Shown one piece after another: positions 9,284 to 55,245 of a stretch of DNA of 64,000 nt. This stretch comes from an uncultured Gammaproteobacteria bacterium (GTDB taxonomy: Bacteria; Patescibacteriota; Microgenomatia; UBA10105; UBA927), in the NCBI GenBank assembly GCA_964596355.1, contig CAZQTD010000002.1, forward strand, positions 24,929-88,928. Reading direction: 5' to 3'. Numbering within the stretch: position 1 is the first letter of the stretch; every line of letters begins with the position of its first letter. A program made the translations under genes and the position numbers. The notes beneath the pieces were generated by a model. That model was not told the DNA's origin. It was given only the letters and a program-made list of their open reading frames with translations, and did not search any database.

Positions 9284-11671
9284 ATGAACGAACTTACATC
9301 ACCAGCCGAATTTATCCTTCCCGTCGTTCCGATACGAGACGGCATCGTGTTTCCCGGAACAGAGATGATTCTTACGTTTGGCAGACAGCGGTCTGTTTCT
9401 TCCATAGAAGCGGCGCAAAGCTCCGGAAAGCGCGTGGTGTTGGTTATGCAGAGAAATCCCAATATAAACGATCCTACTCCTTCTGACTTATATCAAATGG
9501 CAACTATTGGTGAAATCGTTCAAATGATGAAAAACGAAGGAGAAATCAACGCGCTTGTGAAAGGAATAGCGAAAGTTGAAATCCTTTCGTATGAATCGGT
9601 CGAGCCGTTTTTTGTCGCGCGCGTCATAGAACGGCAGGATATATCGGATACGTCGGACGAAACCAAAGCGCTTTTTAATCATTTGACTAATAAGCTTCGC
9701 ACTGCAGTAAAAATGGGTAAGACGATGGATTTCCTGACGTTTATGAACATCATGTCGGGGATTACCCCGCTTGCGCTTTCCTATCACTTAGCCGGAATAT
9801 TAGACATAAAGCCCAGTGAGCGGCAGGAGTTGTTGGAGCTTTCGTCAGTAAAAGAGCGGTTGGAGCGGGAGGCCACACTTCTTGCGCGAGAAACGAGGAT
9901 ATTGGAGCTGGAGAAAAAAATTGCAAGTAAAACGCAGGAAAAATTTGATAAAAACGTTAAAGAACAGGTGCTTCGTGAACGCATTAAGACCATAGAGAAG
10001 GAACTCGGCGAAGATGAAGATGGCAAAGAAATTAAGGAATTGCGGGAAAAAATTAAAAAAGCCAATATGCCCGATGATGTGCGGCGGAAGGCAGAAAAAG
10101 AACTGTCACGTCTTGCGCAAATGTCACAATACAATCCGGAAACGTCGTACGTGCGTACGTATCTTGATACGCTTGTTGAACTTCCGTGGGCAGTTGCCAG
10201 TCCAAACAACGTAAACATCAAGGATGCGGAAAAGGTGTTGAACGAAGATCACTATGGCCTTAAGAAAATCAAAGAACGCATTTTGGAATACCTTGCAGTT
10301 ATGAAGCTTCGCGCGCACGCTGCTTCAGGAAATGATACATTGCACAAGGGTAAAGCCGCGCCGACGATTTTGTGTTTTGTTGGGCCGCCGGGAGTTGGCA
10401 AGACGTCCATCGGCAAATCGATTGCGCGCGCGCTGGGACGCAAATTTGTGAAAATGTCTTTGGGCGGCATCCGCGACGAGGCGGAAATTCGCGGTCACAG
10501 AAGGACTTACGTGGGTGCTCTCCCCGGCCGCATCATCCAAGGTATTAAGCAGGCAGGGACTAAAAACCCGATTTTCATGCTCGATGAAATAGATAAAGTC
10601 GGCGCCGATTTCCGCGGGGATCCCTCTGCGGCACTTCTGGAGGCTCTCGATCCAGAGCAAAACTCGGCGTTTTCCGATCACTACTTGGAAGTGCCGTTTG
10701 ATTTATCCGATGTGTTTTTCATCACGACCTGCAACATGCTCGATACGATTCCGCCCGCGCTCCGCGACAGGCTGGAAGTTATCCGATTTGCCGGATATAC
10801 GGAAGATGAAAAGTTCCACATTGCTTCGGATTTTCTTTATGAAAAGCAGCGTGAGATTCACGCGGTACCTGCAGGTGTTGTTCAATTGAGCGAAGCGGCA
10901 ATTTATGAAATTATTCGTCGCTACACGCGTGAAGCGGGCGTGCGCAATTTGGAGCGAGAAATTGCGACTATTTTTCGGAAAGTTGCCAAAAAAATTGCCG
11001 ACAGCGAAAAAAAGCAGACTTTTGTCATCACCCCCAAGTCTCTTCATGAATACTTGGGTCCGTACCGTTTTACGTCATATCTTGCGGAGAAAAAAGACGA
11101 GGTGGGCATGTCGACTGGATTAGCGTGGACAGAAGCAGGAGGGGACATCCTTTTTATTGAAGCCGCGCTCATGCCGGGCAAAGGATCGTTGACACTTACA
11201 GGTCACTTGGGTGATGTTATGAAAGAATCTGCGCAAGCAGCGATGTCATATGTGAGAAATCGATGGAAGCTCCTTGGACTTGATGAAAAGTTTTACCACA
11301 AGCTAGATATCCACGTTCATGTGCCGGAAGGTGCAGTGCCCAAGGATGGCCCGTCTGCGGGAGCAGCTATCGCCACGGCGCTAGTTTCAGCGCTTACGAA
11401 AATTCCGGTGAAACGGACGGTAGCAATGACCGGCGAAATTACCCTGAGAGGGAGGGTGCTGGAAATCGGCGGTGTAAAAGAAAAAGTGATTGCCGCGCAC
11501 AGAGCCGGCATTAAAACAGTTCTTCTGCCAAAAAACAATAAAAAAGATATGGAAGACATTCCCAAGAGCGTGCAGAAAGACCTTGTGTTTCACTTTGTAG
11601 AGCACATGGACGAAGTGCTTAGTATTGCCCTGACACGAACGCCTATCGCAAAGGGGAAACTTACCGCATAA
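9284..11671 (+). CDS. lon: ATP-dependent Lon protease
   Basis: 795 aa. Has the LON N-domain, Walker [10 protein letters not shown], and the catalytic-serine region [10 protein letters not shown]. Confidence 0.95.
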
Positions 11672-12548
11672 AATCAAAAATAACTTTTGATATCTCAGCA
11701 ACAAGTGCTGACGCCTGTTCTTCATCAGTAATGTCGTTTGTGAACACGCCAAGGTAATATACGGTTTTACCTGCCGCTACAATGCCAACGTCGTGAACCG
11801 AGCCGGTGCCGGTACCGATTTTATGATAGACTGTTATTCCCGCAGGAAGAAGTGCGGGCAGTCGATCTTCAAAATCGCTGTCTTTCATAATCGACAGCAC
11901 TTCTTGCGTATATGCATCGTTGACGATATCTCGCTGGTACAGACGTCGCATAAGGAGAGCAATATCGCGGTTTGACGTTTTATTGTTTACCATATCTGTT
12001 TGCGTCATGCCCCACGAGTTGACGAGCTTTTGGATGCGCTCAAGCGTAAGGATGTGATTTCCAACAATGTGTGCTGCGGTATTGTCGCTTTTTTTCATCA
12101 TCAGTTGGGCAAGCGTTTTGATAGAATACTGATTTCCCGGCTCTTCATAGCGCAGGACGCCAGTACCGTAATGCTGGATATCTTGTGCTTGAATCGTGAT
12201 GACTGTATCAAGATCAACTGTTCCGGCTTGGGCGTCGTGATACAGCGCTATAAGAATAGGTATTTTGTTTACAGAAGCGGCAGAATAGATGACTGACTCG
12301 TTTATTCCCATAGTAAAGTCAGACGTGAAATCCACGACATAAATTGAATAATTTTTCCAATTGCTAGCAATTTTGTTGACGACCAGTTGTTTGAGTTTCT
12401 GCGGGTCTTTGGTGCGACGCATGAAGCGAGATACGAAGGATCTTGTTGCTTGGTGGTCGTCAGGAAGCGGCGATATTATTTGTGCTTTTGACTTATCCGA
12501 AGCAAGCGCCAGAAGAGATGTGAGCATAATGACCGTGCCATATACCAT
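11661..12548 (-). CDS. class A beta-lactamase-like serine hydrolase (secreted/membrane-anchored)
   Basis: SxxK (SVNK), SDN (KSDNTAA) and KTG-like (KIGTG) motifs in class A order. N-terminal hydrophobic segment. Start chosen at the internal Met preceding the signal-like segment; the upstream ATG at 12611 is also possible. Convergent 11-nt overlap with the lon stop. Confidence 0.6.
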
Positions 12549-12624
12549 CAGTTTCTTCAGACAAGAATAAGGGATTTGTGTGGTGCGTCGCTTGCGGCGA
12601 TCCATGGGCAAATTGTATCACACG

Positions 12625-13182
12625 TTATTTGGAACAGTTATGCCAGGCAGTCAATCCGTCAGTGGAAATAGCAAACGCGGCGGTTCTGATGGATTCCTCT
12701 GCGTTCATTCGCAGATTAACATCTGGGTCCATGCCCATCCGGCTTCGAACGGACCGCCACGTGTCGGGTGAGAATTGATAGAGCCCCACATACGGACCGT
12801 TTACTGCGTTGACTTGCAATCCGGATTCACAGATGGCGATTGTGCGCAACCGTTCGCGGTCTACGCTGTAATGATTAGCGGCGTTGGTAAGCCACTCATC
12901 CAGCTGGGCGTCCATTACCGGAATCGGCGTTGGGATCGGTGTGGCGGTGGATGTAGGTGTAGCTGTCGGTTTTGGTGTCGAACGCGGAGAAGGACGTGGC
13001 TTTGGTTGAGGAGAGAGGGCAGGAGTGGGTGCGCTCGTTGGTGTGGGGGGTAAAGTGGGGGAATACCGCACGATCGCAAGCACCTTGGTCGGCGCTCCGG
13101 CGCGAACCATGGAAACAACGGCTGATGGAGTGGCAAGAGAAACTCCCAGAATAATGCCTATGGTCATTCTATTGATATTCAT
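12625..13182 (-). CDS. Rpf-like transglycosylase-like domain protein with N-terminal anchor and Pro/Thr-rich linker
   Basis: C-terminal CESGLQVNAVNGPYVGLYQFSPDTW matches the transglycosylase-like (Rpf) domain signature. N-terminal TM or signal segment, and a linker PTLPPTPTSAPTPALSPQPKPRPSPRSTPKPTATPTSTATPIPTPIP. Confidence 0.6.
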   Translation of the reverse strand: MNINRMTIGIILGVSLATPSAVVSMVRAGAPTKVLAIVRYSPTLPPTPTSAPTPALSPQPKPRPSPRSTPKPTATPTSTATPIPTPIPVMDAQLDEWLTNAANHYSVDRERLRTIAICESGLQVNAVNGPYVGLYQFSPDTWRSVRSRMGMDPDVNLRMNAEESIRTAAFAISTDGLTAWHNCSK

Positions 13183-13185
13183 TCT

Positions 13186-13668
13186 GTGCTATGGTTATTG
13201 TATATGCTTGGAGCAATTCTTGCTATTGTTATCTGTCAGATTGCGGGAGCCTTGGGAGCGGTGGTTACAGCTCCCGCGATCCCCGCGTGGTATGCCGGTT
13301 TGACAAAGCCGGCGATAAACCCGCCAAATTGGGTATTTGGCCCCGTGTGGACCCTTCTTTATACACTGATGGGAATTGCCGTGTATCTAGTTTGGAAGAA
13401 AGGGATAAAGAAGCCACGCGTTCGGCTCGCAGTGACAGTCTTTGGCATTCATCTTGCGGTTAATACTGCATGGTCTATCGTATTTTTTGGCTTCCACGCT
13501 ATTGCATCAGCGCTTTTCGTCATTTTCATTCTCTGGAGTCTTATAGTTATTCTTATGAAGCTGTTTCATCCGATCGATAAGCGTGCAACCTACTTCCTTG
13601 TTCCCTATTTGGCGTGGGTATCGTTTGCTGCCATCCTCAATTTTTGGCTTCTCATTCTGAATCCGTAG
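13186..13668 (+). CDS. tspO: TspO/MBR family tryptophan-rich sensory protein
   Basis: 160 aa polytopic protein with WYAGLTKPAINPPNWVFGPVWTLLYTLMG, diagnostic of TspO. Confidence 0.8.
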   Translation: MLWLLYMLGAILAIVICQIAGALGAVVTAPAIPAWYAGLTKPAINPPNWVFGPVWTLLYTLMGIAVYLVWKKGIKKPRVRLAVTVFGIHLAVNTAWSIVFFGFHAIASALFVIFILWSLIVILMKLFHPIDKRATYFLVPYLAWVSFAAILNFWLLILNP

Positions 13669-13788: not shown

Positions 13789-13865
13789 TGGTACCCCGTG
13801 CCGGATTCGGACCGGCGACCTTCGCCTTGAGAAGGCGACGTCCTAGACCGCTAGACGAACGGGGC
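13789..13865 (-). tRNA. tRNA-Glu (anticodon CUC), CCA encoded
   Basis: The reverse complement folds as a cloverleaf: acceptor GCCCCGU/ACGGGGU (G1-U72 wobble), D-arm, anticodon stem UCGCC/GGCGA with loop UUCUCAA (anticodon CUC), 5-nt variable loop, T-arm GCCGG/CCGGC, and ACCA tail. The T-loop reads UCCGAAU (C at position 55), which is unusual. Confidence 0.75.
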
Positions 13866-14016: not shown

Positions 14017-14493
14017 TTGATGATTATGGACATGACGCACAACAAGGTAGTGTTAACTAAACAAGGACTCGCAGAGCTCAAAGCAGAGCATGAAGAGTTG
14101 GTCAACAAAAAGCGACCGGAAGTCGTAAAGCGTCTTTCTGATGCGCGCGATCTGGGAGATCTGTCAGAAAACAGTGAATATGCCGCAGCAAAACAGGATT
14201 TAGCCTTCATAGACGGCAGAATTTTGGAACTTGAAGAGATAATTCACGGCGCCAAAGTGGTAACTTCGCACAGCAAAGGGCAGGTAGACGTAGGGTGTAA
14301 AGTCACCCTGCACGTGAACGGTAAAAAGGAAGTCTTTACGGTGGTAGGAGAATGGGAGGCAGATCCGGTACAAAAGAAAATCTCCCATGAATCGCCGCTA
14401 GGCAAAGCGCTCATAGGAAAAAAGGTCGGAGAAAAGGTGGAAGTAGAGGCTCCGGCGGGGAAGATACTCTATAAAGTTCTCCATATAGAATAA
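14017..14493 (+). CDS. greA: transcription elongation factor GreA
   Basis: N-terminal coiled-coil with acidic tip (DLGDLSENSEYAAAKQDLAFIDGRILELEE) and a C-terminal FKBP-like domain. The true start may be one of the internal Met codons at 14026-14032. Confidence 0.85.
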   Translation: MMIMDMTHNKVVLTKQGLAELKAEHEELVNKKRPEVVKRLSDARDLGDLSENSEYAAAKQDLAFIDGRILELEEIIHGAKVVTSHSKGQVDVGCKVTLHVNGKKEVFTVVGEWEADPVQKKISHESPLGKALIGKKVGEKVEVEAPAGKILYKVLHIE

Positions 14494-14516
14494 AAAAAAT
14501 AACAGACGACACGCCA

Positions 14517-14538
14517 CCCGCCGAGAAGGCGGGTTTTT
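14517..14538 (+). terminator. Rho-independent terminator after greA
   Basis: CCCGCC-GAGAA-GGCGGG hairpin followed by TTTTT, immediately downstream of the greA stop. Confidence 0.55.
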
Positions 14539-14624
14539 AATAGCGCAGGTATGATATTATTATGGAGAAGATTGCGAAATTATTTGTATCGTCGAATACG
14601 TAATTTCTACAATCTTCTACAGGA

Positions 14625-16712
14625 ATGCCGACAATTGATGAACTCAAAAAAGTGCGGATAGAAAAGCTTGAGCGGCTCAAAAAGCTCAAGATAGACCCGT
14701 ATCCGGCAACCGTCAAACGAGAGCAAACCATAGATCAGGCGCGTCAAATGGATGGCAAGGAAGTAGGCGTTGCCGGGCGCATCATGGGATTACGAAGTCA
14801 CGGAAATATCACATTCGTTGACGTGGCCGATGAGTTCGGAAAAATTCAAGTCGTCTTTAAGTCCAGTGATGTGGACAAACTCGTAAAAGCGATCGTTGAG
14901 CTTTTGGATATCGGCGATTTCATTGCGGTACAAGGGATTGTAGGAAAAACACACGCAGGCGAGATTTCAATATTTGCCAAAGATGCCCAGATGGTTGCCA
15001 AATCCGTGCGTCCTCTGCCTAGCCAATGGCATGGCCTCAAAGATGTCGAAGATCGCTACCGTCAGCGATACGTTGATCTTATCGTTAATCCGTCGGTTCG
15101 TGAGATATTTAAAACGCGCACACGGATTATTACGTTTCTGCGAAGTTTTCTAGACCAGAATGGATTTATGGAAGTCGAAACGCCGGTGCTGCAGCCGATC
15201 TATGGCGGGGCGTCCGCAAAACCCTTTATCACACACCATAACGCGCTTGGGTGTGACTTATTTCTTCGAATTTCCGATGAACTGTATCTGAAACGACTCA
15301 TCGTGGCGGGATTTGAAAAAGTGTATGAGCTTAGCAAAGATTTCAGAAATGAAGGCATTGATCATCAACACAGCCCGGAATTTACGATGCTGGAATTCTA
15401 CTGGGCGTATGCAGATTACGAACGACTCATGACATTTACAGAAGAGATGATGTCCAAGCTCATTGGTTCGATACAAGGATCAATGAAGGTTGTATTTCAA
15501 AAAAAAGAGCTTGACTTTACGCCCCCCTGGCCCAGAAAAACCTATAGAGACGTCGTCTATGAGTATTTAGGTATTGATATTGATGCGGCCGACAGCGAGG
15601 AACGGCTGCTTGGGGCGATAAAGGAAAAGAACATCCAATTGGATCTTACCGGCGTCATCGGCTACGGCGCAATCCTTGATACATTATTCAAAGCGACAGC
15701 CCGCCCGCATTTAACCGGCCCGATGTTTTTGACTGACAGGCCAACGGCGTTTGTAACGCTTGCTAAGCGGCGTCCTGATGATCCAAGAAAAACCGCGTCG
15801 TTTCAGCTTCTTGTTGCGGGTAAAGAGATGATAAACGCGTATAACGAGCTCAATGATCCAATGGATCAAGCGGCTCGGTGGCGCGAATCAGAGAAGCTTG
15901 GAGAAAAGGGCCAGACAGAACATGAAGCATTTGACGCCGATTACATCCGTGCGCTTGAGTACGGTATGCCGCCGGCTGCGGGCTGGGGCATGGGAATTGA
16001 TCGTCTGGTGTCGATTCTAACCGATCAGGAAGGTCTTAAAGATGTCATTTTGTTTCCAGCTTTGCGGCCCGAATATGCCAGCCCTCATTCCAAGACGAAG
16101 CATGATACGATCGAAACTATCGGTGAGACGTTTGAGACGTTGCGAAAGATTACGAGAGAGCAGGCCATTGAACTTCTCCATGCGCATACCAAAAGCGTGA
16201 ACCTGCGGCGGCATTGTTATGCGGTGGGAGCGGTCATGCACGCGCTTGCCAAAAAGCTGGGAGGAGATCCGGCGTTATGGGAAGTGCTAGGTATTCTTCA
16301 CGATGCGGATTGGGAGGAGACAAAAGATAGGCCGGATCATCACACGCTGAAAACATTAGAGTGGTTGAAGGAATTGGGGCTAACTGAAGGCCCGCTTGTT
16401 CATGCATTCATGTCACACAACAGGAAGCACACGCGCTTAGCGGAGCTTGAGGGCGTCATGGAATGGGCGCTTGAAACGTGCGATGAACTCACCGGATTTA
16501 TTGTCGCTGTTGCGCTTGTTCGGCCGGATAAAAAGCTAACATCCGTCACCGTTGAATCGGTTCTCAAAAAGTGGAGGAATAAGGAGTTTGCCAGAGCTGT
16601 TGACCGCGCACAAATTGAAAAGTGCGAAGCAAAACTCGGGATACCTCTCAATGAATTTATTGGGATTGCGCTTGCCGCGATGCAAGACCACCACAAGGAG
16701 CTGGGACTGTAA
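14625..16712 (+). CDS. lysS: lysyl-tRNA synthetase (class II) fused to a C-terminal HD-domain phosphohydrolase
   Basis: Residues 1-490 are canonical LysRS: OB-fold anticodon-binding domain and class II motifs 1-3 (FRNEG, GIDRL). Residues 495-695 carry an HD/HDIG-like domain (H..H...LHDADWEE...HH...H). Confidence 0.85.
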   Translation: MPTIDELKKVRIEKLERLKKLKIDPYPATVKREQTIDQARQMDGKEVGVAGRIMGLRSHGNITFVDVADEFGKIQVVFKSSDVDKLVKAIVELLDIGDFIAVQGIVGKTHAGEISIFAKDAQMVAKSVRPLPSQWHGLKDVEDRYRQRYVDLIVNPSVREIFKTRTRIITFLRSFLDQNGFMEVETPVLQPIYGGASAKPFITHHNALGCDLFLRISDELYLKRLIVAGFEKVYELSKDFRNEGIDHQHSPEFTMLEFYWAYADYERLMTFTEEMMSKLIGSIQGSMKVVFQKKELDFTPPWPRKTYRDVVYEYLGIDIDAADSEERLLGAIKEKNIQLDLTGVIGYGAILDTLFKATARPHLTGPMFLTDRPTAFVTLAKRRPDDPRKTASFQLLVAGKEMINAYNELNDPMDQAARWRESEKLGEKGQTEHEAFDADYIRALEYGMPPAAGWGMGIDRLVSILTDQEGLKDVILFPALRPEYASPHSKTKHDTIETIGETFETLRKITREQAIELLHAHTKSVNLRRHCYAVGAVMHALAKKLGGDPALWEVLGILHDADWEETKDRPDHHTLKTLEWLKELGLTEGPLVHAFMSHNRKHTRLAELEGVMEWALETCDELTGFIVAVALVRPDKKLTSVTVESVLKKWRNKEFARAVDRAQIEKCEAKLGIPLNEFIGIALAAMQDHHKELGL

Positions 16713-16717
16713 CGTTA

Positions 16718-16745
16718 TGTTACTATGTTTTAAAACATAGTAACA
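16718..16745. repeat. perfect 28-bp palindrome (TGTTACTATGTTTT|AAAACATAGTAACA) between lysS and rdgB
   Basis: 14-bp arms with no spacer. No flanking U-tract on either strand. Confidence 0.5.
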
Positions 16746-16751
16746 AAATCC

Positions 16752-17366
16752 ATGAAACTTTTGATAGCGACTGCGAATCCCGGAAAACTTGCAGAAATAC
16801 GCGAGTTTCTTTCGGATTTGCCAATAGAGCTATTGAGCCTTCAAGATATAGAGTGTACGGATGTCATAAAAGAAACCGGGAAAACATTTGAAGAAAACGC
16901 AATTCTTAAGGCGACGTATTATTTCACGCGAAGCGGTCTTCCAACGATTGCCGACGACGGAGGATTTGAAATTGACGCGCTTGGAGGAGCTCCGGGTGTT
17001 AGGTCTCACCGATGGATGAGCGGCGAAGAAGAAAACGACGATGAAGAGCTTATTGCATACACGCTTAAAAAGATGAAGGGATTACCCCCAGTTCGTCGAG
17101 GGGCCCAGCTTCGGTCGGTTATTGCGCTTGTCATTTCAACTGACGCTGTTTATACGGCGGAGGGTGTCATCCGGGGCATCGTGCCGGAACAGGCTTCAAC
17201 GTATAGAATGAAAGGATTTCCATACCGGTCGCTTCTTTATCTACCAGAATGCAACGCGTTCTATAACGAACACGAATTGACGAATGCCGAGAATGAAGCG
17301 TACAATCACAGAAAGAAAGCGATAGAAAAGATCAAACCCATTATTCGGACACATTTATTACGGTAA
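16752..17366 (+). CDS. rdgB: RdgB/HAM1 non-canonical purine NTP pyrophosphatase
   Basis: MKLLIATANPGKLAEIREFL start and conserved ITPase motifs (FEIDALGGAPGV). Confidence 0.85.
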   Translation: MKLLIATANPGKLAEIREFLSDLPIELLSLQDIECTDVIKETGKTFEENAILKATYYFTRSGLPTIADDGGFEIDALGGAPGVRSHRWMSGEEENDDEELIAYTLKKMKGLPPVRRGAQLRSVIALVISTDAVYTAEGVIRGIVPEQASTYRMKGFPYRSLLYLPECNAFYNEHELTNAENEAYNHRKKAIEKIKPIIRTHLLR

Positions 17367-17446
17367 AACTCTCGCGTGTTTTTACGTGGGTGATTAGAGA
17401 GGTATATTGTACAATTATTACATTATTTATTTCTTTTCATAACTCT

Positions 17447-18691
17447 ATGCTTGATATCACATATATACGAAACAATTTAGAGCGTTGCAAAGCCGCGGCA
17501 AAAAATAAAAAACGTGAGGTATTGTGGGATACGCTATTGTCGCTTGATATAAAACGGCGCGAACTTATTGGCCAGTGGGAAAAGTTGCGCGCAGCGCGCA
17601 ATAAAATTTCAGGCAATAATGAAAACGGTCGGGAAGAAGGGAAAAAGCTTAAGGTGGCGCTGAAAACTCTTGAAGAAGAATTGCGAAACGTTGAAGCGGA
17701 ATTTGAGGCGTTGATGCTCACGGTTCCCAATGTCCCAGACCCTTCGGTTCCTATTGGGAAGGGGGCAGATGGAAATAAGGAGGTTAAAAAATGGGGGACA
17801 ATTCCAACGTTTGATTTTACGCCTAAAGACCACGTGGAGCTTGCAACGTCATTGGATTTAATTGATTTTGAGCGAGGAGCAAAAGTTGGCGGGTCGCGTG
17901 CGTATTTTTTGAAAAACGAAGGCGCACAGCTTGAATTTGCTCTCCTTTATTATACGTATTGTAGGCTTATTAATAAAGGCTATACGCCGCTCATTGCGCC
18001 AAGCCTTGTGCGTGAGTTTACGCTGGTGGGCAGCGGGCAGTTTCCGTGGGGAAAAGAAGAGGTATATAAGATCGAAAAAGATGGCGTATTTCTTGCCGGT
18101 ACCGCAGAGGTGCCGGTGACAGCATATTTTGCCGACGAGATCCTCACAGCCGACGATCTGCCACAAAAATTCGTTGCATTTTCTCCGTGCTTTCGCAGAG
18201 AGGCGGGGAGCTATGGGAAGGATACGAGAGGGGTTTATAGATTACACCAATTTAATAAAATTGAACAAGTTATTATCACAACTGCGGAAACGAACAATTC
18301 TCTTGCTCTACACGAAGAATTATTGGCTAACGCAGAAGAAATTTTACAGGTATTGGAACTTCCGTACCGTGTGCTTCTCATGTGTACAGGCGACATGGGC
18401 GAACCGCAAGTAAAAAAATATGATATTGAAGCATGGATGCCCGGCAGAAACGCATATGGCGAAACGATGTCAAATTCATTTATGGGAGATTTTCAAGCTA
18501 GAAGACTCAAAATCCGATACAAAACTAAGGACGGCAAAACAATGTTTTGCCATACACTCAACAATACTGCTATTGCTTCTCCAAGAATTCTGATTGCGAT
18601 TTTGGAACACTACCAACAGAAAGACGGGTCCGTAATCATCCCGAAAGTCCTGCGGCCACTTATGGGAAAAGATGTGATTACACGGTCATAG
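17447..18691 (+). CDS. serS: seryl-tRNA synthetase
   Basis: Start refined to MLDITYIRNN, the canonical SerRS N-terminus. Coiled-coil arm followed by a class II core (GSGQFPWGKEE...). Confidence 0.9.
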   Translation: MLDITYIRNNLERCKAAAKNKKREVLWDTLLSLDIKRRELIGQWEKLRAARNKISGNNENGREEGKKLKVALKTLEEELRNVEAEFEALMLTVPNVPDPSVPIGKGADGNKEVKKWGTIPTFDFTPKDHVELATSLDLIDFERGAKVGGSRAYFLKNEGAQLEFALLYYTYCRLINKGYTPLIAPSLVREFTLVGSGQFPWGKEEVYKIEKDGVFLAGTAEVPVTAYFADEILTADDLPQKFVAFSPCFRREAGSYGKDTRGVYRLHQFNKIEQVIITTAETNNSLALHEELLANAEEILQVLELPYRVLLMCTGDMGEPQVKKYDIEAWMPGRNAYGETMSNSFMGDFQARRLKIRYKTKDGKTMFCHTLNNTAIASPRILIAILEHYQQKDGSVIIPKVLRPLMGKDVITRS

Positions 18692-41950: not shown

Positions 41951-43063
41951 ATGAATCTGGTCTTCATTCTTCCCACGTATAACGAACGGGAGAATATTGT
42001 TACGCTGCTTGAAGCGCTTAGAAAAGCGACGTCAAAAGTTAAAGGCTATACGATTACGTATCTTATCGTTGATGATAATTCTCCGGATGGCACAAAAGAT
42101 GAAGTGTTGCGGTACAAAAAAACTCACCCTACCGTTCAGGTGGTATCCGGCAAGAAAGAAGGTTTGGGCAAAGCGCTATTGCGGGGAATGAAGTATGCGG
42201 TTCATACGCTTCGTACCGACATTTTGTTTCAAATGGATGCGGACTTATCGCATGATCCCTCTAAAGTGCCGGAATTTTTAGAGCATCTGGCAAAGGGCGC
42301 GGATTTTGTCATCGGAAGCAGATACATTCCGGGAGGGTCTATACCGGACAACTGGGGAGCGCACCGAAAGCTTTTTAGCAGGGCTGGTAATGCGATCGTG
42401 CGGTTTGGGCTCGGATATCCGCATGTGCATGACTGGACAGGAGGATTTAGAGCGTTTCCCAAAAAGTATTATGAATTATTGCATGAAGAAGTTTCTCCGT
42501 ACAGCGGATACGTATTTCAAATAGCATTTTTGCACCGCGCGATTATGAAAGGCGCGCGTGTTGCCGAAGTGCCGTTTAGATTTACGGATAGACGGTTTGG
42601 CAGGTCAAAAATAGCGCCCGCCGAATATATCCGCAATGTGTTGGTATATGTGGCAAATGCCAGAATGATGCAATGCATACATGGCCCCATCGGCAAGATG
42701 CTTGTTGTGGGCGCCATAGGGTTTGTCATCAATACGATTATTCTTGAGGCCGGCGTTGCGCTGGGTTTGGATCCGACGGTTGGAAGCGCGGCAGGAGCAG
42801 AAACAGCGATTATATCGAATTTTATCCTCAACAACACGTGGACGTTTCGGGAGAGAAAAATTATCGGCATAAGATTAATCAGTAAATTCCTGCAATTTAA
42901 CGCGACGTCGTTTGGCGCGATACTCATTCAGACGGCAACAGTGTTTGCGGGCACGCGATTGTTTGGTCACGGCGTGTATCGGTTGTTTTACATGATGGGC
43001 GTGGGAATCGGTTTGGTATGGAATTTTACAATGTACGCAAAGGTCATCTGGAGAAAAAAATGA
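41951..43063 (+). CDS. GT2 polyprenol-phosphate glycosyltransferase fused to C-terminal GtrA-like domain
   Basis: Start refined to MNLVFILPTYNERENI. GT2 core with DDNSPDGT and DADLSHDP, then four C-terminal TM helices resembling the GtrA family (residues 250-370). Confidence 0.75.
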   Translation: MNLVFILPTYNERENIVTLLEALRKATSKVKGYTITYLIVDDNSPDGTKDEVLRYKKTHPTVQVVSGKKEGLGKALLRGMKYAVHTLRTDILFQMDADLSHDPSKVPEFLEHLAKGADFVIGSRYIPGGSIPDNWGAHRKLFSRAGNAIVRFGLGYPHVHDWTGGFRAFPKKYYELLHEEVSPYSGYVFQIAFLHRAIMKGARVAEVPFRFTDRRFGRSKIAPAEYIRNVLVYVANARMMQCIHGPIGKMLVVGAIGFVINTIILEAGVALGLDPTVGSAAGAETAIISNFILNNTWTFRERKIIGIRLISKFLQFNATSFGAILIQTATVFAGTRLFGHGVYRLFYMMGVGIGLVWNFTMYAKVIWRKK

Positions 43064-43067
43064 ACAT

Positions 43068-44609
43068 ATGATAGTAATATGCGGTGAGCAGAAGAAACCA
43101 TGGATGGTTCCCCTTGTGGTGGGGGTTATTCTCGCGCTTGGAGCGTATCTTCGGCTCCACAATATTGCTGGCTACATGACGTTTTTGGGTGATGAAGGAC
43201 GAGACGTCCTTGTCGTCAAACGCATGATAGTGGACCATAAATTTACGCTTCTTGGCCCCACTGCGTCAGTGGGCGGATTTTTCCTTGGACCGCTCTACTA
43301 CTACCTTATGCTTCCTTTTTTGTGGGCATGGGGGCTTAATCCTGTGGGTCCCGCCGTTATGGTTGCGCTTTTTGGTGTTGCGACGATTTACCTTGTGTAC
43401 CTGACCGGACGCGTACTGTTTGACCGGTGGGTCGGTATAATCGCTGCAAGTCTCTATGCGGTGTCTCCTTTAGTTATCGCGTACTCCCGATCATCATGGA
43501 ATCCAAACGTGGTGCCGTTTTTTGCGACGCTTCTTGTATTGTTATTGTGGAAGCTTAAACAACGCGAAACAGGACGTGTTGCCCTTGGAATCGGCGTTGT
43601 TCTCGGCATGGGACTGCAGCTCCATTATCTCTTCCTCTTTTTATTTGTACTGGTGGGTTTGTGGTATGCGGTGAGCGTTCGGCGTGCCACGCTGTTACGA
43701 CTCGTCGCTCTGACGACAGCGGGGTTCGTCATTGGGTACGCGCCGTTTCTAGCGTTTGAGGTGCGCCACGGTTTTCCTAACACGCAATCCGTGATACGTT
43801 TTGTGTTTGCGGGTAAAGAAACCGGGTATCAGGGGACAGCGTTTTTTACGACGATTTACGACATCGTGTTTAGGCTTTTTGGAAGACTTCTTTTCAGACT
43901 TCCAGATACGACCGTATGGGACAATTTCCCGCGATGGCAAATAGCCGTTTGGATCATGATCACGCGGACGACTGCTATAATAAGCAGCATTGCTTTATTC
44001 TTGCCTGTCTTTAGAAGACGCAAACAATCACAAAACTATCTCCTCCTCCTTCTGTGGTTTACTGTTCCGGTGTTTCTTTTTGGGTTTTACAAAAAGGGTA
44101 TCTATGATTATTATTTTGGCATTTTTTTTGCATTGCCGTTTCTTGCCGTTGGAATCATCGTGTCGCTCCTTATGAAAGGAAAACTTTCCCGGTGGATGGC
44201 ATTGGGACTTTGGCTGGGACTGGTATATTTTAATTGGCAGGGAAGGCCGTTTGTTCATCCTCCGAATAATCAGCTGGCGCAGGCGAGAGAAATCGCTCGT
44301 GTTGCGTATGAAAAGGCAGAGGGGCGGCCGTACAACTTTGCCTTGGTAACCAGCGGGAATTCTGATCACGCGTACCGATACTTTTTTGAACTATGGGGCA
44401 ATAAGCCAGTTACAATTGAGAATGAAAGCATTGACCCGGAAAGGAAAACCGTGACAGATCAACTCATCGTTATATGTGAAGGCGCGTGCGAGCCGCTGGG
44501 ACATCCCTTGTGGGAGATTGCTGGTTTCGGCAGAGCAGAAATCGCAGGAAGCTGGGACGTACCATTTGTCAAAATTTATAAACTCGTCCACTATAAAGGA
44601 GAATCGTGA
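43068..44609 (+). CDS. polytopic GT-C-type glycosyltransferase (ArnT/PMT superfamily-like, DEGRD motif in first loop)
   Basis: 513 aa with more than 10 TM helices and an acidic motif FLGDEGRD after TM1. Paralogous to the minus-strand gene at 62574-63842 (shared GP.YYYL block). Confidence 0.55.
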   Translation: MIVICGEQKKPWMVPLVVGVILALGAYLRLHNIAGYMTFLGDEGRDVLVVKRMIVDHKFTLLGPTASVGGFFLGPLYYYLMLPFLWAWGLNPVGPAVMVALFGVATIYLVYLTGRVLFDRWVGIIAASLYAVSPLVIAYSRSSWNPNVVPFFATLLVLLLWKLKQRETGRVALGIGVVLGMGLQLHYLFLFLFVLVGLWYAVSVRRATLLRLVALTTAGFVIGYAPFLAFEVRHGFPNTQSVIRFVFAGKETGYQGTAFFTTIYDIVFRLFGRLLFRLPDTTVWDNFPRWQIAVWIMITRTTAIISSIALFLPVFRRRKQSQNYLLLLLWFTVPVFLFGFYKKGIYDYYFGIFFALPFLAVGIIVSLLMKGKLSRWMALGLWLGLVYFNWQGRPFVHPPNNQLAQAREIARVAYEKAEGRPYNFALVTSGNSDHAYRYFFELWGNKPVTIENESIDPERKTVTDQLIVICEGACEPLGHPLWEIAGFGRAEIAGSWDVPFVKIYKLVHYKGES

Positions 44610-45358
44610 AACAACCGTTTTTGTCCATCGTCATCCCTGCATACAATGAAGAAACGAATATTCGCTTAGGCGCGCTTGATAAGGTGTCCAGGTATCTGGA
44701 GCACCAAACATACAGAAAGGAAGTTATTGTGGTTGATGACGGCTCGACCGATGCGACAGGGGATCTCCTTGACGATTTTGTCCAAACGAATAAAGACTTT
44801 CGCGTTATCCACAAGGCTCACAGTGGAAAAGCCGGCACGGTGATAGAGGGTGTGTTGGCGGCAAAAGGAGAACTGGTGCTGTTTACCGATCTAGATCAGG
44901 CAACGCCGCTTCATGAACTAGAACGTTTGCTGCCGTATTTTGCCAGCGGATATGACATTGTTATCGGTTCAAGGAATGCAAGGCGTGAAGGAGCGCCCGT
45001 TACACGCGTCATAATGGCGAAAGGATTTATGATGCTTCGCGCGCTCTTTCTGGGACTTCGAGGAATTACTGACACGCAGTGCGGATTTAAAGCGTTCCGG
45101 CGGGAAGTAGCAGTGTCAATTGTTCGAAACCTCAAGCTCTACGGACATGGCGGCCAAGCGACCGGTTCGATGGTAACCGCAGGATTTGATATAGAGGTGC
45201 TTTTTGTTGCGAAAAAAAAGAAATACAAAATTAAAGAAGTTCCTGTCGAGTGGCACTATGTGGAAACGAGGAGAGTTAGCCCGCTAAAAGATTCTTTATT
45301 CGGACTTGTGGATATGATAAAAATCCGCGTGAATGCGTGGCGGGGGCTCTATCGGTAG
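44606..45358 (+). CDS. GT2 polyprenol-phosphate glycosyltransferase (Dpm1-like)
   Basis: SIVIPAYNEE, VVDDGSTD and DLDQATP (DxD). 4-nt overlap with the preceding GT-C gene. Confidence 0.8.
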   Translation: MKQPFLSIVIPAYNEETNIRLGALDKVSRYLEHQTYRKEVIVVDDGSTDATGDLLDDFVQTNKDFRVIHKAHSGKAGTVIEGVLAAKGELVLFTDLDQATPLHELERLLPYFASGYDIVIGSRNARREGAPVTRVIMAKGFMMLRALFLGLRGITDTQCGFKAFRREVAVSIVRNLKLYGHGGQATGSMVTAGFDIEVLFVAKKKKYKIKEVPVEWHYVETRRVSPLKDSLFGLVDMIKIRVNAWRGLYR

Positions 45359-45366
45359 ATTAGCGT

Positions 45367-46506
45367 ATGGTATTGCTTGTATCCTATGTATTTGCGGCGT
45401 TGAGCTTGCTGGTATATTCGTACACTCAAGTTGACTTAAGCCTTACGCTAACCGAAGCGGGCATTTTTCAATCTATACAAAAGGCGTTTCAGCACATTGG
45501 TTATTATCAGCGACCAATGTCTACTGCTTTATTTATCGTGATCGTTCTGATGTTTTCCGGACTTTACCTTGCATCCATTCGCGCGTTTCGGAAGAACGCA
45601 CTGACGAACCGCCAGCTTTGGCATATTATCGGTGCGGTTGCAGCAATTCTTGTATTGTCATACCCGGCTTTTTCTTATGACCTATTTAACTACATGTTTA
45701 CCGCAAAAACCGTACTGGTATATCACAAAAACCCGTACACGGTGACTCCGCTTCAGTTTTCTGGTGTTGAACCATGGCTTTCCTTCATGCATTGGACGCA
45801 TCTACCCAGTGCCTATACCCCATTGTGGATACTCATAACTATCCCCGCGTACCTTTTAGGGTTTGGGTATTTCTTGGGGATCATGTGGAACATGAAACTC
45901 ATTGCTGCGGCATTTTATCTGTTGACTGCATGGTGTATTGGTCAAATTCTGTCGCGCGTCGATGAAAAACGGCGGCAAGTGGGTATGGCGATATTTGCGC
46001 TCAATCCTCTTATCATCATAGAGACGCTTGTCAGCGGCCACAACGATATCGTCATGATGGCGTTCGCAATGTTGGCGCTCTGCTTATGGCTGGCAAGAAA
46101 GCACCGTTTGTCATACGTGTTTTTGGCTCTGTCTGTTGCAAGCAAGCTCATAACGCTTGTTTTGTATCCCGTCGCAGTATCAGGGTGGAATAGACGATGG
46201 GCGCTTGCCGCCATGCTTGGTGGATTTGCCGCTGTTTTAACCCAGCGCGAGGTGCTTGCGTGGTATTGGGTATGGATCGTGCCGTTTGTCGCGCTTCTGC
46301 CGTCCTATGGCGAATTAACGATCGTATCACTGGGCGTATCCATTGGTTTGCTTCTTCGCTACGCGCCGTTTCTCTATTTCGGTCACTGGAACGACCCGGT
46401 TCCGCTTATTAAGGAGTGGGCGACATGGGTGCCTGTTGGCGCTTCAATTGTTTTAGTATGTTCTATACGTCTTTTGCGTAGAAAAAATCGCGCATCTTCG
46501 GTATAA
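45367..46506 (+). CDS. polytopic membrane protein, putative GT-C-like glycosyltransferase or polymerase
   Basis: 379 aa with about 10 TM helices and a conserved-looking SGHNDIVMMAF segment. Family not recognised with confidence; the call rests on context within the glycosylation locus. Confidence 0.4.
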   Translation: MVLLVSYVFAALSLLVYSYTQVDLSLTLTEAGIFQSIQKAFQHIGYYQRPMSTALFIVIVLMFSGLYLASIRAFRKNALTNRQLWHIIGAVAAILVLSYPAFSYDLFNYMFTAKTVLVYHKNPYTVTPLQFSGVEPWLSFMHWTHLPSAYTPLWILITIPAYLLGFGYFLGIMWNMKLIAAAFYLLTAWCIGQILSRVDEKRRQVGMAIFALNPLIIIETLVSGHNDIVMMAFAMLALCLWLARKHRLSYVFLALSVASKLITLVLYPVAVSGWNRRWALAAMLGGFAAVLTQREVLAWYWVWIVPFVALLPSYGELTIVSLGVSIGLLLRYAPFLYFGHWNDPVPLIKEWATWVPVGASIVLVCSIRLLRRKNRASSV

Positions 46507-46525
46507 TCTCCGTATATCCTTCTTT

Positions 46526-48028
46526 ATGGCACAACGCACGAAGATTTGGAGTTTAAGGCTGTTGTTCATAGGTGTTTTATTGCTTCTTTTTTACTTAGTC
46601 ACGAGGCTGACCAACCTTACCCAATTGCCGATATTTACCGATGAAGCAATCTATATCCGCTGGAGTCAGATAGGTTCACGCGATGCCAACTGGAGATTTA
46701 TTTCGCTTGTTGACGGCAAGCAGCCGATGTTTACGTGGATTATGATGGTTTTTTTGAAAGTTATCCGCGATCCGCTGCTGGCGGGTCGGCTGGTATCTGT
46801 TGTGAGCGGATTTGTGACGATGGCAGGGTTGGGGCTTTTGACGTTTGCGTTATTTCGAAGTGCGAAGCTGGGGTTTGTCGTCTGTACGCTGTATATACTT
46901 TCTCCGTTTGCCCTTATGTATGACCGCCTCGCACTGTACGATTCTCTGGTAGCCGCGTTTTCTGTGTGGAGTCTTTACGGCGGCGTCCTATTGGTTCGGT
47001 TATTGCGTTTGGACATCGCGCTTCTTCTGGGGATGGTATTGGGCGCGGGAATGCTCAACAAATCCTCGGGATTTATGAGCCTCTACTTTTTGCCTGTTAC
47101 GCTGGTGCTGTTTGACTGGCGTAAAAAGGAGAGAATAATGAGGTTTCTGCGATGGCTGGGTCTTGTGCTGGTTGCCGCAATCATTTCCCAGCTTCTTTAC
47201 AGCGTACTTAGACTTTCGCCGCTTCTTCATATGGTGAAACAAAAAGACGCGGTATTTGTCTATCCGTTTCACGAGTGGCTCAAACACCCTTTCAATTATT
47301 TCGTCGGCAATATACAAGGACAATTTGATTGGCTCATCCGATACATGACCATTCCGATAGCACTGCTTTCATTTATTCCAGCTGTTACTTTCTGGAAGCA
47401 CACACGCGAGAAACTCCTTCTCTACGCGTGGTGGGCAGCGCCGTTTCTTGTGCTTGCGCTGTTTGCCAGAGTCTTGTACCCCCGGTTCATTTTATTTATG
47501 GTAATGCCGCTTTACGTTTTAGCATCGATTCCTTATCTATGGATTATGGAGCGGCTTGGACATCGTCTTTGGAAAGCGGTTCTGCTGTTTCTTATCATAT
47601 TTCCGAGCGTGTTTGCCGACTTTTACATCATCGCGGATCCCAGATATGCGCCGCTCCCATTTTCCGACAAAGTTCAACTTGTAGACGACTGGCCGTCGGG
47701 ATGGGGCATTCGTGAGGTCAACGCATATCTTATAGAAGAAGCGAAAAAGGGAGAGATCGCCGTTTATACAGACGGGACGTTTGGCCTCCTTCCGTATGCA
47801 ATAGAGATGTATCTTGTTGATAACCCGCACGTAACGATAAAAGGAATCTGGCCGCTTCCCAAAGATCCGCCGGAAGAGATGATTGCGGATGCGGCCCGTA
47901 AACCGACATACATGGTATTTAATCAAACGCAGAATGTGCCGTTGTGGCCCATGGAGAAAATCAGTGAATATGCAAAAGGCAACAGCAAGGATCAAAAACT
48001 TCGCTTATATCGAATCATTGAAAAATAA
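46526..48028 (+). CDS. GT39/GT83-like (ArnT/PMT family) GT-C glycosyltransferase
   Basis: First-loop motif PIFTDEAIYIRW (the DE motif of ArnT/PMT enzymes), more than 10 TM helices, and a C-terminal soluble domain. Confidence 0.65.
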   Translation: MAQRTKIWSLRLLFIGVLLLLFYLVTRLTNLTQLPIFTDEAIYIRWSQIGSRDANWRFISLVDGKQPMFTWIMMVFLKVIRDPLLAGRLVSVVSGFVTMAGLGLLTFALFRSAKLGFVVCTLYILSPFALMYDRLALYDSLVAAFSVWSLYGGVLLVRLLRLDIALLLGMVLGAGMLNKSSGFMSLYFLPVTLVLFDWRKKERIMRFLRWLGLVLVAAIISQLLYSVLRLSPLLHMVKQKDAVFVYPFHEWLKHPFNYFVGNIQGQFDWLIRYMTIPIALLSFIPAVTFWKHTREKLLLYAWWAAPFLVLALFARVLYPRFILFMVMPLYVLASIPYLWIMERLGHRLWKAVLLFLIIFPSVFADFYIIADPRYAPLPFSDKVQLVDDWPSGWGIREVNAYLIEEAKKGEIAVYTDGTFGLLPYAIEMYLVDNPHVTIKGIWPLPKDPPEEMIADAARKPTYMVFNQTQNVPLWPMEKISEYAKGNSKDQKLRLYRIIEK

Positions 48029-48034
48029 CCCGTT

Positions 48035-49570
48035 ATGGCAAAAAAGACCGCGCATGTTCCCCTTTTTTCAATTGCCATCATTATTTTTGCCGTCTTCATT
48101 GTGCTCATTCCCCTCATCCGACGCGGTTTTTTCGTTTCCGATGACGGCGAATGGATGATTATCAGGTTATCCGCCTTCTATCAGGCGTTTCGGGAGGGGC
48201 AGTTTCCGGTCCGATTTCTCGGCAGGCTAAACAACAGTTATGGCTATCCGGTCGCAAATTTTTTGTATCCCGGGTTTTTGTATATTGGTTCCGTTTTGCA
48301 TGCGATAGGCTTCTCGTTTGTCGACAGCGTCAAACTCATTCTCGCGGGTTCGGTCATCGGCGCTACAATATTTTTGTACTTATGGCTTCGGACATTTTTT
48401 ACTCCACGCATAAGTGCCGCAGGCGTTTTAAGTTTTGTGTTTGCCCCGTACCTTCTCCATGATATGTACAAGCGGGGCTCCGTAGGTGAGGTGTTGGCGA
48501 TATGTTGGGCGGCAATGGGTTTATACGCTATCGACTCGAAAAAGTCATGGTTGTTTTCACTCGCTCTGGCACTTCTTATCGTCAGTCATAACTCATTGGC
48601 ACTTCTTTTCAGCGGGTTTTTCCTGTTGTATCTCATGTGGCTGCGGCGGATAAACGATTTTCTCTATCCATATTTGTTAGGAGTTGGGATGACAACCTTT
48701 TTCTGGTTGCCAGCGATTATTGAGCAAACCTATGTGGTTTTCCGATCTGCTACCGTAGCAAATCCATCTGAATATTTACTCAAGGGGCTCGAGATTTCGC
48801 GTGTCGGTTTGGCGTTTGTTGTCTTCGCACTCATCCTCATGATAAAACATGAGGTAAAACAACGGGTGCCTTTTTTTATTTGCGTGCTTTGTGGCATCGT
48901 TATCCTTACCCTCCCTATAAGCGCTCCGGTTTGGAAGCTTACAATTTTAAAGACATATGTGCAGTTTCCTTTTCGATTTCTTTCTCTTGGACTTTTTGTT
49001 GGGCCGTGGATCGTTGCTTTTGCCTTGCAGAGACTACGCGGGGGTTGGCGCGTGGCCGCAACAGTTCTCATCGCGATCCTGTGGCTGCATAGCGTCGGCG
49101 ATGCGTTCCGGTCAATCCGTTTTACGCAGGAGGTCGAAGGGTACTACACAACCAATGAGTCAACAACGACGGTACATGATGAATACATGCCTCGGTGGGT
49201 TGTTATGAAGCCAAAGACACGTCCGCGCGAGCGAATGGAGTTTATTAACGGAAGCGGACGGTTCGATTATAGAACAGTGAGCACTCAACTTATTGATGCG
49301 ACTGTTGACGCTCATACAGATAGTATCATTCAAATTAATACAATCTATTATCCTGGTTGGGGAGCAAGCCTTAATGACAGAAAAGTTGTTATAGATTATA
49401 ACAATGATGCGGGAGTGATGCGCATCGCTGTGCCCAAGGGAACATATCGTCTGATTGTGGCATTTCGCGAAACCGTATCGCGGTTTGCCGCAGACGTCGT
49501 TTCAATTATTGCATTCATCCTGTTTCTTGTGTACGCGAGATCTTCGCAAGTGAGGAAGTATCCGGTATGA
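48035..49570 (+). CDS. PTPS-related/YfhO-like polytopic membrane glycosyltransferase (paralog 1)
   Basis: SDDGEWMIIRLSAFYQAFREGQFPVRF...YGYPVANFLYPGF N-terminal block is paralogous to the next gene. Multi-TM with a C-terminal extracytoplasmic domain. Confidence 0.55.
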   Translation: MAKKTAHVPLFSIAIIIFAVFIVLIPLIRRGFFVSDDGEWMIIRLSAFYQAFREGQFPVRFLGRLNNSYGYPVANFLYPGFLYIGSVLHAIGFSFVDSVKLILAGSVIGATIFLYLWLRTFFTPRISAAGVLSFVFAPYLLHDMYKRGSVGEVLAICWAAMGLYAIDSKKSWLFSLALALLIVSHNSLALLFSGFFLLYLMWLRRINDFLYPYLLGVGMTTFFWLPAIIEQTYVVFRSATVANPSEYLLKGLEISRVGLAFVVFALILMIKHEVKQRVPFFICVLCGIVILTLPISAPVWKLTILKTYVQFPFRFLSLGLFVGPWIVAFALQRLRGGWRVAATVLIAILWLHSVGDAFRSIRFTQEVEGYYTTNESTTTVHDEYMPRWVVMKPKTRPRERMEFINGSGRFDYRTVSTQLIDATVDAHTDSIIQINTIYYPGWGASLNDRKVVIDYNNDAGVMRIAVPKGTYRLIVAFRETVSRFAADVVSIIAFILFLVYARSSQVRKYPV

Positions 49571-51925: not shown

Positions 51926-51926
51926 C

Positions 51927-55238: not shown

Positions 55239-55245
55239 TCTGATT

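Follow-up and report, generated by a model that had tools for sequence, protein, structure and literature searches.

The lysS::HD gene and its two-domain product

In the contig CAZQTD010000002.1 of a genome deposited as an uncultured Gammaproteobacteria bacterium and placed by GTDB in the Patescibacteriota (GenBank assembly GCA_964596355.1), we analysed the 64,000 nucleotides (nt) between positions 24,929 and 88,928 of the forward strand, called the window below, with positions counted from its first letter. A single gene of this window, lysS::HD, encodes a class II lysyl-tRNA synthetase (LysRS) that continues without a stop into an HD domain. Its product is one polypeptide made of a complete housekeeping-type class II LysRS, a flexible linker and the HD domain; the layout is as follows (aa, amino acids; loci and database proteins used for comparison carry L and P numbers).

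14625..16712, + strand: fused lysS::HD gene, a single open reading frame (ORF) with an ATG start, 695 codons and a stop
14769..14990, + strand: LysRS N-terminal anticodon-binding domain of the oligonucleotide/oligosaccharide-binding (OB) fold, residues 49-122 (PF01336, 52.6 bits)
15048..16073, + strand: LysRS class II catalytic core, residues 142-483 (PF00152, 276 bits, with the Pfam tRNA-synt_2 match at residues 142-479; NF001756)
16074..16148, + strand: interdomain linker, residues 484-508, YASPHSKTKHDTIETIGETFETLRK; unconserved, with very low model confidence
16149..16709, + strand: HD/HDIG-type phosphohydrolase domain, residues 509-695, 187 aa, all-alpha
16212..16214, + strand: H530, first metal ligand, aligned to YqeK H29/H21 and invariant in fused proteins
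16299..16316, + strand: H559-D560, the HD doublet, followed by D562 and E564 in the motif LHDADWEE; D562 is invariant, E564 invariant or nearly so
16341..16343, + strand: H573, second-metal ligand, aligned to YqeK H91/H83
16416..16418, + strand: H598, second-metal ligand, aligned to YqeK H117/H109 and invariant in 99 family representatives
16482..16484, + strand: D620, last metal ligand, aligned to YqeK D135/D127; Asp, or Glu in a B-type variant

The ORF listing gives 695 aa without an internal stop, and the LysRS part is full-length, its residues 6-483 matching NF001756 with 588.9 bits (cut-off 468) over profile positions 2-488 of 488, and TIGR00499 with 533.6 bits (cut-off 427.6). Motif 2 (FRNE, residues 240-243, within DFRNEGID) and motif 3 (GWGMGIDR, residues 453-460) are in place, and the class II motif residues are invariant across 58 fused proteins. 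The LysRS part (…ILFPALRPE) runs to about nt 16073, which agrees with the initial annotation, where the junction was put near nt 16075; its description of a complete class II LysRS fused in one frame to an HD domain, with no stop or frameshift splitting the two, is likewise borne out. The C-terminal part matches PF01966 at residues 529-604, with 22.4 bits in the whole protein and 24.1 bits as a separate piece (cut-off 22), and the HDIG model TIGR00277 with 29.1-29.5 bits when the domain is taken alone (cut-off 27.6) and only 26.9 bits in the whole protein; this match is marginal but consistent, HDIG being matched by 92 of 99 representatives of the HD family. The H…HD…D metal ligands that define the HD superfamily and HDIG proteins are conserved on an all-alpha fold. 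Judged by its sequence, the protein is a genuine LysRS and at the same time a genuine HD/HDIG protein. Neither a class I nor a class II LysRS was found elsewhere in the 64-kb window, and Rfam and tRNA scans gave no leader RNA at lysS::HD.

AlphaFold2 modelled the isolated HD domain with a predicted local distance difference test (pLDDT) value of 97; in the full-length model both domains are confident, linker residues 485-506 fall below a pLDDT of 50, and the predicted template modelling score is 0.64. As modelled, the product is a “beads on a string” protein with a flexible tether of about 25 residues and no predicted fixed interface. Across 57 fused homologues the mean identity to the window protein is 63% in the LysRS part, 55% in the HD domain and 6.6% in the linker, which varies in length from 16 to 55 aa and in which K, S, V, E, P and T are frequent; both halves are under purifying selection. 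The linker contains an in-frame TTG (L506; 16140-16142, + strand), at which the two closest fused relatives have Met, and this codon is probably the relic start of a once-separate HD gene; the HD domain may also be translated separately from an internal start there. The sequence GGTGAG lies about 12 nt upstream of the TTG.

A whole-protein search of NCBI, JGI, ENA and Logan assemblies returned dozens of fused relatives with a length of 685-727 aa and 51-79% identity over 100% of the length, besides a 100% identical protein in NCBI (P0121) on a contig of 124,944 bp. Because 88 of the 120 best homologues share the two-part architecture, the read-through is not a sequencing artefact. Some close relatives do carry two separate genes with very short spacers, as expected if a sequencing or assembly error had here erased a stop between two distinct genes, lysS and HD, or changed the reading frame there, but the independently assembled fused homologues, the two nearest of which (79% and 78% identity) have a homologous linker with 32-36% linker identity, and a GC content that is continuous over the junction make such an error extremely unlikely. 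A scan for terminator-like sites found none at the junction. In a neighbour-joining tree of the LysRS parts, fused and unfused forms are interleaved; as the sample was ranked by the fused query, the tree gives neither the ancestral state nor the number of events. In public databases the architecture is already present, un-named, under the plain annotation lysine--tRNA ligase, and no description of a LysRS-HD fusion was found in the literature searched; the nearest mention, by Mukai et al. (2017), concerns a different domain, a PheRS-beta B2-like C-terminal domain in a few LysRS of Microgenomates (PMC5370408).

The HD family, its partners and its locus

By its profile matches, the HD domain is a member of a distinct, uncharacterised HDIG-type family. 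Profiles of the HD part only (LysRS columns removed) were used, the main one built from 99 family members, and in comparison with the PDB this profile gave significant matches to YqeK structures only (8jja, E 4e-7; 2ogi, 2o08, 8wmy, 3ccg); a single-sequence phmmer search of PDB sequences with the C-terminal part produced chance matches only. The top fold matches were the dinucleotide hydrolases PgpH, HD-GYP and YqeK, and the HD domains of GlyRS-beta (7eiv, 7xjy, 8ie2) were also among them. In the alignment to 8jja, the YqeK residues H29, H58, D59, H91, H117 and D135, taken from published ligand lists (PMC11857287; PMC13627108), fall on H530, H559, D560, H573, H598 and D620. The domain keeps all six residues by which a binuclear metal site is recognised; the extended H…HD…H…H…D motif has been described as diagnostic of such a site (PMC8177086). 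H530, H559, D560, D562, H573 and H598 are invariant in the 58 fused proteins. The metal-binding His and Asp residues are therefore kept, as the initial annotation had supposed, and the motifs that it quoted (HAH, LHDADWEE and DHH) are all present; HAH (H519/H521), however, is not conserved, and the first ligand is H530 in NLRRH. Further residues conserved in the family are K648/K649, F655/A656 and R661. At E ≤ 0.01, the 99 representatives matched the models of RNase Y (63), the DVU_1551 NTP-transferase-HD protein (54), Trm56-HD PRK12703 (44), TIGR00295 (43) and NadD-YqeK PRK07152 (26).

The family is large. With the C-terminal 212 aa as query we obtained 1,903 proteins, the best of them standalone proteins of 187-189 aa with 70-79% identity from Gottesmanbacteria, Microgenomates and Patescibacteria, and an exhaustive search over 1.84 billion representatives (E ≤ 1e-3) yielded 2,478 clusters at 50% identity. 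Relatives of the domain occur in at least 596 GTDB species in a scan of one genome per species, for which the neighbourhoods of the best 80 loci were read. Eight of these 80 loci hold LysRS-HD fusions, including metagenome-assembled genomes labelled Patescibacteria, Saccharibacteria and Peribacteria, and in about 15 others the HD gene directly follows a class II lysS. Among the best 150 clusters of the exhaustive search, at least 19 contain class II LysRS-HD fusions, 12 of them full-length and 7 truncated at the N-terminus. The fusion is found repeatedly, in many lineages of Patescibacteria, so that the remark that the architecture is not standard holds for model organisms, but not for this group, in which it is common.

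Some fusions are elaborated, with the order LysRS-HAD-HD (P0246, 918 aa), LysRS-tRNA_bind-B3_4-HD (P0364) or LysRS-B3_4-HD (P0170). The only other fusions of the domain seen in the best 150 clusters were HD-Ham1 (P0244, 395 aa), in which the HD gene is joined to its downstream neighbour Ham1/RdgB as it is elsewhere to the upstream lysS, AMMECR1-HD, PAS-GGDEF-HD and beta-propeller-HD; in the long proteins that were examined, no partner is nearly as frequent as LysRS. Class I LysRS genes also lie directly upstream of HD genes, in L006, L011 and L064 (found via the HD gene; all apparently Patescibacteria) and in L086 (found via lysK). All LysRS fusions of the family that were found are nevertheless with class II LysRS, though class I tolerates a C-terminal B3_4 fusion, and a search with an artificial chimera of class I LysRS and HD found no class I LysRS-HD fusion. 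In L034 (Caldiserica), a class I LysRS upstream of the HD gene was ruled out, the upstream gene encoding a GH57 enzyme.

The fused gene lies in a conserved block, which in the window has the order greA, lysS::HD, Ham1, serS, methyltransferase, secA:

14017..14493, + strand: greA, conserved upstream neighbour (synteny with relatives)
14516-14534, + strand: terminator-like hairpin ACCCGCC-GAGAA-GGCGGGT followed by a T run, between greA and lysS::HD
16752..17366, + strand: Ham1/RdgB-type non-canonical NTP pyrophosphatase, conserved downstream neighbour (synteny)
17390..18691, + strand: serS (seryl-tRNA synthetase), next gene of the syntenic block (synteny)

Given the hairpin, lysS::HD may be the first gene of a separate transcription unit. 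A close relative (L001) shows the same block with separate genes, in the order greA, lysS (484 aa), a 17-nt gap, HD (187 aa), Ham1, His_Phos_1, serS and secA, and in L089 lysS and HD share a reading frame, with only TAA and two codons between them, so that a fusion needs only the loss of a stop codon. The fusion thus arose from adjacent, co-oriented lysS and HD genes in a greA-lysS-HD-Ham1-serS block. Among close relatives the slot is labile, being fused (window, L083), separate (L001, L089) or empty (L088, L090); as the gene is dispensable there, the HD domain is an accessory and not an obligatory partner of LysRS. A tRNA-Glu(CTC) gene lies upstream of greA (13789-13865, - strand).

The domain at the same position in L083 is divergent, of the B-type (LHDIDWEL…, with Glu for D620). 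B-type HD domains fused to LysRS were seen in L083:6001-8091, P0144, P0151-P0154, P0156 and P0170; they carry the motifs LHDIDWEL…SHGYGQGFGDEYYGP…QHALAAAETLTG, have Glu and not Asp as the last ligand as well as a Gly/Tyr-rich insertion, and are 36-39% identical to the window HD domain. The LysRS parts of most of these fusions group with the closest unfused relatives of the window protein.

Class I and class II LysRS share one slot, greA-LysRS-[HD]-Ham1-serS (L084, L085, L086 and L087 in comparison with L001, L083, L088-L090 and window positions 14017-18691), which looks like an in-situ non-orthologous displacement of lysS within Microgenomates. LysRS of both classes with a C-terminal B3_4 domain, whose fold is that used for editing in PheRS-beta, were found in Microgenomates, for instance in L064:1695-3995 (Daviesbacteria) and L084:3501-5837 (Roizmanbacteria CP066689.1); such proteins include P0410, P0412, P0421 and P0425 as well as P0204, P0170 and P0364. 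Of the 120 best matches for class I LysRS, about 25 are of this fused form (771-793 aa), and some of the class II versions have tRNA_bind and HD added, which suggests that LysRS-B3_4 is an unrecognised cis-editing or tRNA-handling module. The gaps of 560-650 nt between lysS and HD in some loci hold no B3_4 gene; they contain assorted unrelated ORFs, or none of at least 100 aa. In P0185 (632 aa) and P0211 (639 aa), a class II LysRS about 72-74% identical to that of the window carries a C-terminal DUF2000 (PF09391), likewise an uncharacterised accessory domain, in place of the HD domain.

Elsewhere in the window, positions 42996-62565 are occupied by a long co-directional cluster for cell-envelope glycosylation. 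It encodes two glycosyltransferases of the PMT_2 type, two membrane proteins resembling YfhO and a polysaccharide flippase, and several of its ORFs, 500-600 aa in length, have no Pfam match, e.g., 48029-49570 and 49408-51219. Three genes lie just upstream of the locus:

11661-12611, - strand: class A beta-lactamase-like protein
12625-13182, - strand: Pro/Thr-rich transglycosylase-like protein
13186-13668, + strand: TspO/MBR family membrane protein

Possible functions of the HD domain

We tentatively read the HD domain as a tethered, active binuclear phosphohydrolase that would remove a nucleotide by-product of LysRS of the type of diadenosine tetraphosphate (Ap4A) or another dinucleoside tetraphosphate (Ap4N), and give this reading, with Ap4A hydrolysis as already put forward in the initial annotation, a probability of roughly 0.4. 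The domain would act as an independent, metal-dependent module on a small nucleotide; a class II LysRS makes Ap4A or Ap4N when ATP or another NTP attacks lysyl-AMP, these dinucleoside polyphosphates would be the likeliest substrate, and their cleavage near the source would keep the by-product or alarmone low, by the same logic as in the NadD-YqeK “proofreading” fusion of mycoplasmas and other pairs of a synthetase and an HD hydrolase. The proposal follows that precedent and the role of LysRS, which is cited as the principal cellular source of Ap4A (PMC13627108). We count in its favour the recurrence of the fusion, the conservation of both halves, the flexible tether, the pairing of all six ligands with those of YqeK and the dinucleotide hydrolases at the top of the fold matches. 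It also counts that other fusions and neighbours of the family belong to nucleotide metabolism (HD-Ham1, LysRS-HAD-HD, PAS-GGDEF-HD and, in L064, a YfbR-like HD gene as the next gene downstream), and that LysRS fusions were found with class II LysRS only, despite HD genes directly following class I LysRS in several genomes.

A number of observations weigh against it. The closest solved relatives of the domain by profile are YqeK proteins, but neither the window protein nor its C-terminal piece matches the YqeK model TIGR00488 at E ≤ 1, and only 16 of the 99 representatives do so at E ≤ 0.01 (best E 4.4e-8), a smaller number than for the RNase Y or Trm56-HD models. The residues with which YqeK binds the polyphosphate and adenine moieties are R18, K54, R133, F135 and F163 (PMC13627108). 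The Arg at -3 of the first His is not conserved and is Leu in the LysRS-linked domain, the Lys at +3 of the HD doublet is replaced by Trp or Tyr, and beyond D620 neither an Arg nor a Phe is conserved at the spacing of R133, F135 and F163, in a C-terminal half where the alignment is less certain. At +2 and +4 after the doublet stand the acidic D562 and E564, which would be a poor match for a tetraphosphate chain, unless an additional metal is bound by them. Linkage to nadD is missing as well, the neighbours in the window and in relatives being greA, lysS, Ham1 and serS. Departing from YqeK in its match to the family model, in the residues that bind substrate and in its genomic partner, the HD domain is not a member of the YqeK family. 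Nor is the link to LysRS general: the remaining loci of the best 80 (including Clostridia, Desulforudis, Aminicenantes, Thermotogae, Chloroflexota, some archaea and several Patescibacteria) have no class II lysS within 4 kb, in seven Firmicutes loci the gene immediately after a standalone HD gene, in the same orientation, is RNase R, and two close relatives, L088 and L090, lack the HD gene altogether (greA-lysS-Ham1-serS), so that any coupling is not obligatory. The full-length AlphaFold2 model predicts no fixed contact between the domains, and neighbours in compact operons can fuse without any functional coupling, an HD-Ham1 fusion existing too. The missing substrate-binding residues, the acidic D562/E564, a family that is widespread without a link to LysRS, and the dispensability of the domain in close relatives all weaken the by-product reading.

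A somewhat doubtful, yet serious, alternative is that there is no specific coupling at all, but a general nucleotide house-cleaning or second-messenger hydrolase encoded beside lysS in a tight operon, from which repeated stop loss has produced roughly neutral fusions. The lability of the slot, spacers so small that a single mutation suffices, the fusion of the domain to its other neighbour Ham1, the disordered linker, and the many family members outside Patescibacteria without a LysRS neighbour all agree with it. Against it, fused forms that conserve both domains persist down to about 51% identity across several groups of Patescibacteria (among them the loci labelled Saccharibacteria and Peribacteria); the predominance of LysRS among the partners, an adjacency that is kept despite inserted genes or the other LysRS class, and elaborated versions with inserted HAD or B3_4 that still end in HD speak against neutrality as well. 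Less probable again is a phosphoesterase acting on RNA or tRNA ends and tethered to LysRS through their shared tRNA substrate, be it a 2',3'-cyclic phosphodiesterase/3'-phosphatase that heals the 3' ends of tRNA(Lys) or other RNAs, comparable to the HD domain in the CCA-adding enzyme of E. coli, an RNase Y-like enzyme or a decapping enzyme. The HD gene directly follows both of the unrelated LysRS classes, but for class I this may reflect an inherited gene order in the shared slot, where HD is kept in only one of four loci of the unbiased sample, and the dedicated search for a class I fusion was negative. Matches to the models of RNase Y and of the HD part of Trm56-HD, frequent as they are among the representatives, lie far below the family cut-offs and may only mirror the shared HDIG core. 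While tRNA-handling modules stand between LysRS and HD in P0364 and P0170, the window protein has no attached RNA-binding domain, and the specificity of such an enzyme for tRNA(Lys) would be left without an explanation. YqeK itself decaps Ap4A-capped RNA (PMC13627108), and the recurrent adjacency to RNase R (RNB/S1 domains; L020, L031, L054, L055, L058, L065 and L073, from Firmicutes/Clostridia) hints at an RNA-related role.

A further and quite improbable proposal is a new quality-control metallo-phosphoesterase of aminoacyl-tRNA synthetases, which would destroy an adenylate-type product specific to LysRS, with D562 and E564 recognising the amino group(s) of the substrate; the product might be a non-cognate aminoacyl-adenylate (ornithyl- or homocysteinyl-AMP, for example), lysyl-AMP that has been released, or an Ap4N cap. 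If it were true, the domain would point, together with the B3_4 and DUF2000 (PF09391) domains likewise fused to LysRS of both classes in Patescibacteria, to an unrecognised modular system of LysRS editing or clean-up in bacteria with reduced genomes. Hardly credible is a non-catalytic domain that aids tRNA binding or dimerisation of LysRS in the manner of GlyRS-beta. GlyRS-beta is among the top fold matches and appended RNA-binding domains are common in aminoacyl-tRNA synthetases; its HD doublet, however, is lost (Ser/Lys; PMC8464048) while H559-D560 is invariant in the fused proteins, the same domain also exists as the standalone protein of about 187 aa, and it is absent beside otherwise very similar LysRS genes (L088, L090).

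Significance and comparison with known systems

Whether Ap4A is a regulated alarmone or a by-product of damage is still debated. If the domain does remove Ap4A or Ap4N, the recurrent joining of LysRS to an intact binuclear hydrolase resembling YqeK would speak for a removal of Ap4A at its source in some bacteria, and the fusion would be a simple one-protein system for measuring Ap4A synthesis against hydrolysis. If the substrate were something else, e.g., an RNA end or an aminoacyl-adenylate, a function would be defined for an HD family that is large (about 2,500 clusters at 50% identity, found in at least 596 GTDB species) and so far uncharacterised, and aminoacyl-tRNA synthetases would gain a new type of accessory domain. 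Either way, the fusion provides a functional lead for the abundant “HD domain-containing protein” of Patescibacteria.

In several known systems an HD hydrolase is joined to an enzyme that makes phosphoester or phosphoanhydride bonds and reverses or repairs its chemistry, namely the E. coli CCA-adding enzyme, Rel/SpoT, GlnD and GGDEF-HD-GYP proteins; they differ from LysRS-HD in HD subfamily and substrate, and none of them contains an aminoacyl-tRNA synthetase. LysX, the mycobacterial MprF-LysRS, likewise combines a class II LysRS core with a second enzyme that uses or handles the LysRS product, and its model NF002821 matches the LysRS part with 480 bits, below the cut-off of 742; its partner, though, is an N-terminal membrane lysyl-phosphatidylglycerol synthase consuming Lys-tRNA, whereas a C-terminal soluble HD hydrolase is found here. 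In GlyRS-beta, the HD domain has lost the catalytic His-Asp doublet and is placed between the B3 and anticodon-binding domains, facing the tRNA's acceptor arm (PMC8464048); in contrast, the LysRS-linked domain keeps all ligands, hangs on a flexible linker and also occurs free.

The domain most resembles YqeK (COG1713/TIGR00488), the symmetrical Ap4A/Ap4N hydrolase of Gram-positive bacteria, which is also an all-alpha HD-superfamily domain of about 190 aa with the six-ligand binuclear motif, and is likewise fused or adjacent to an adenylyl-transferring enzyme, NadD; the lack of a TIGR00488 match, of the YqeK substrate-binding residues and of nadD linkage sets the LysRS-linked domain apart from it. 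The NadD-YqeK fusion of mycoplasmas (e.g., JCVISYN3A_0380) is the best functional analogy: a nucleotidyl-transferring enzyme with a C-terminal HD diphosphatase, clustered and fused forms of which alternate by lineage, and whose HD part was found experimentally to act as a proofreading diphosphatase, hydrolysing dinucleotides that its partner makes in error (PMC9426524). There the partner is an NaMN adenylyltransferase and the HD domain comes from another family, whereas in LysRS-HD the partner is an aminoacyl-tRNA synthetase and a comparable proofreading role is suggested by this analogy.

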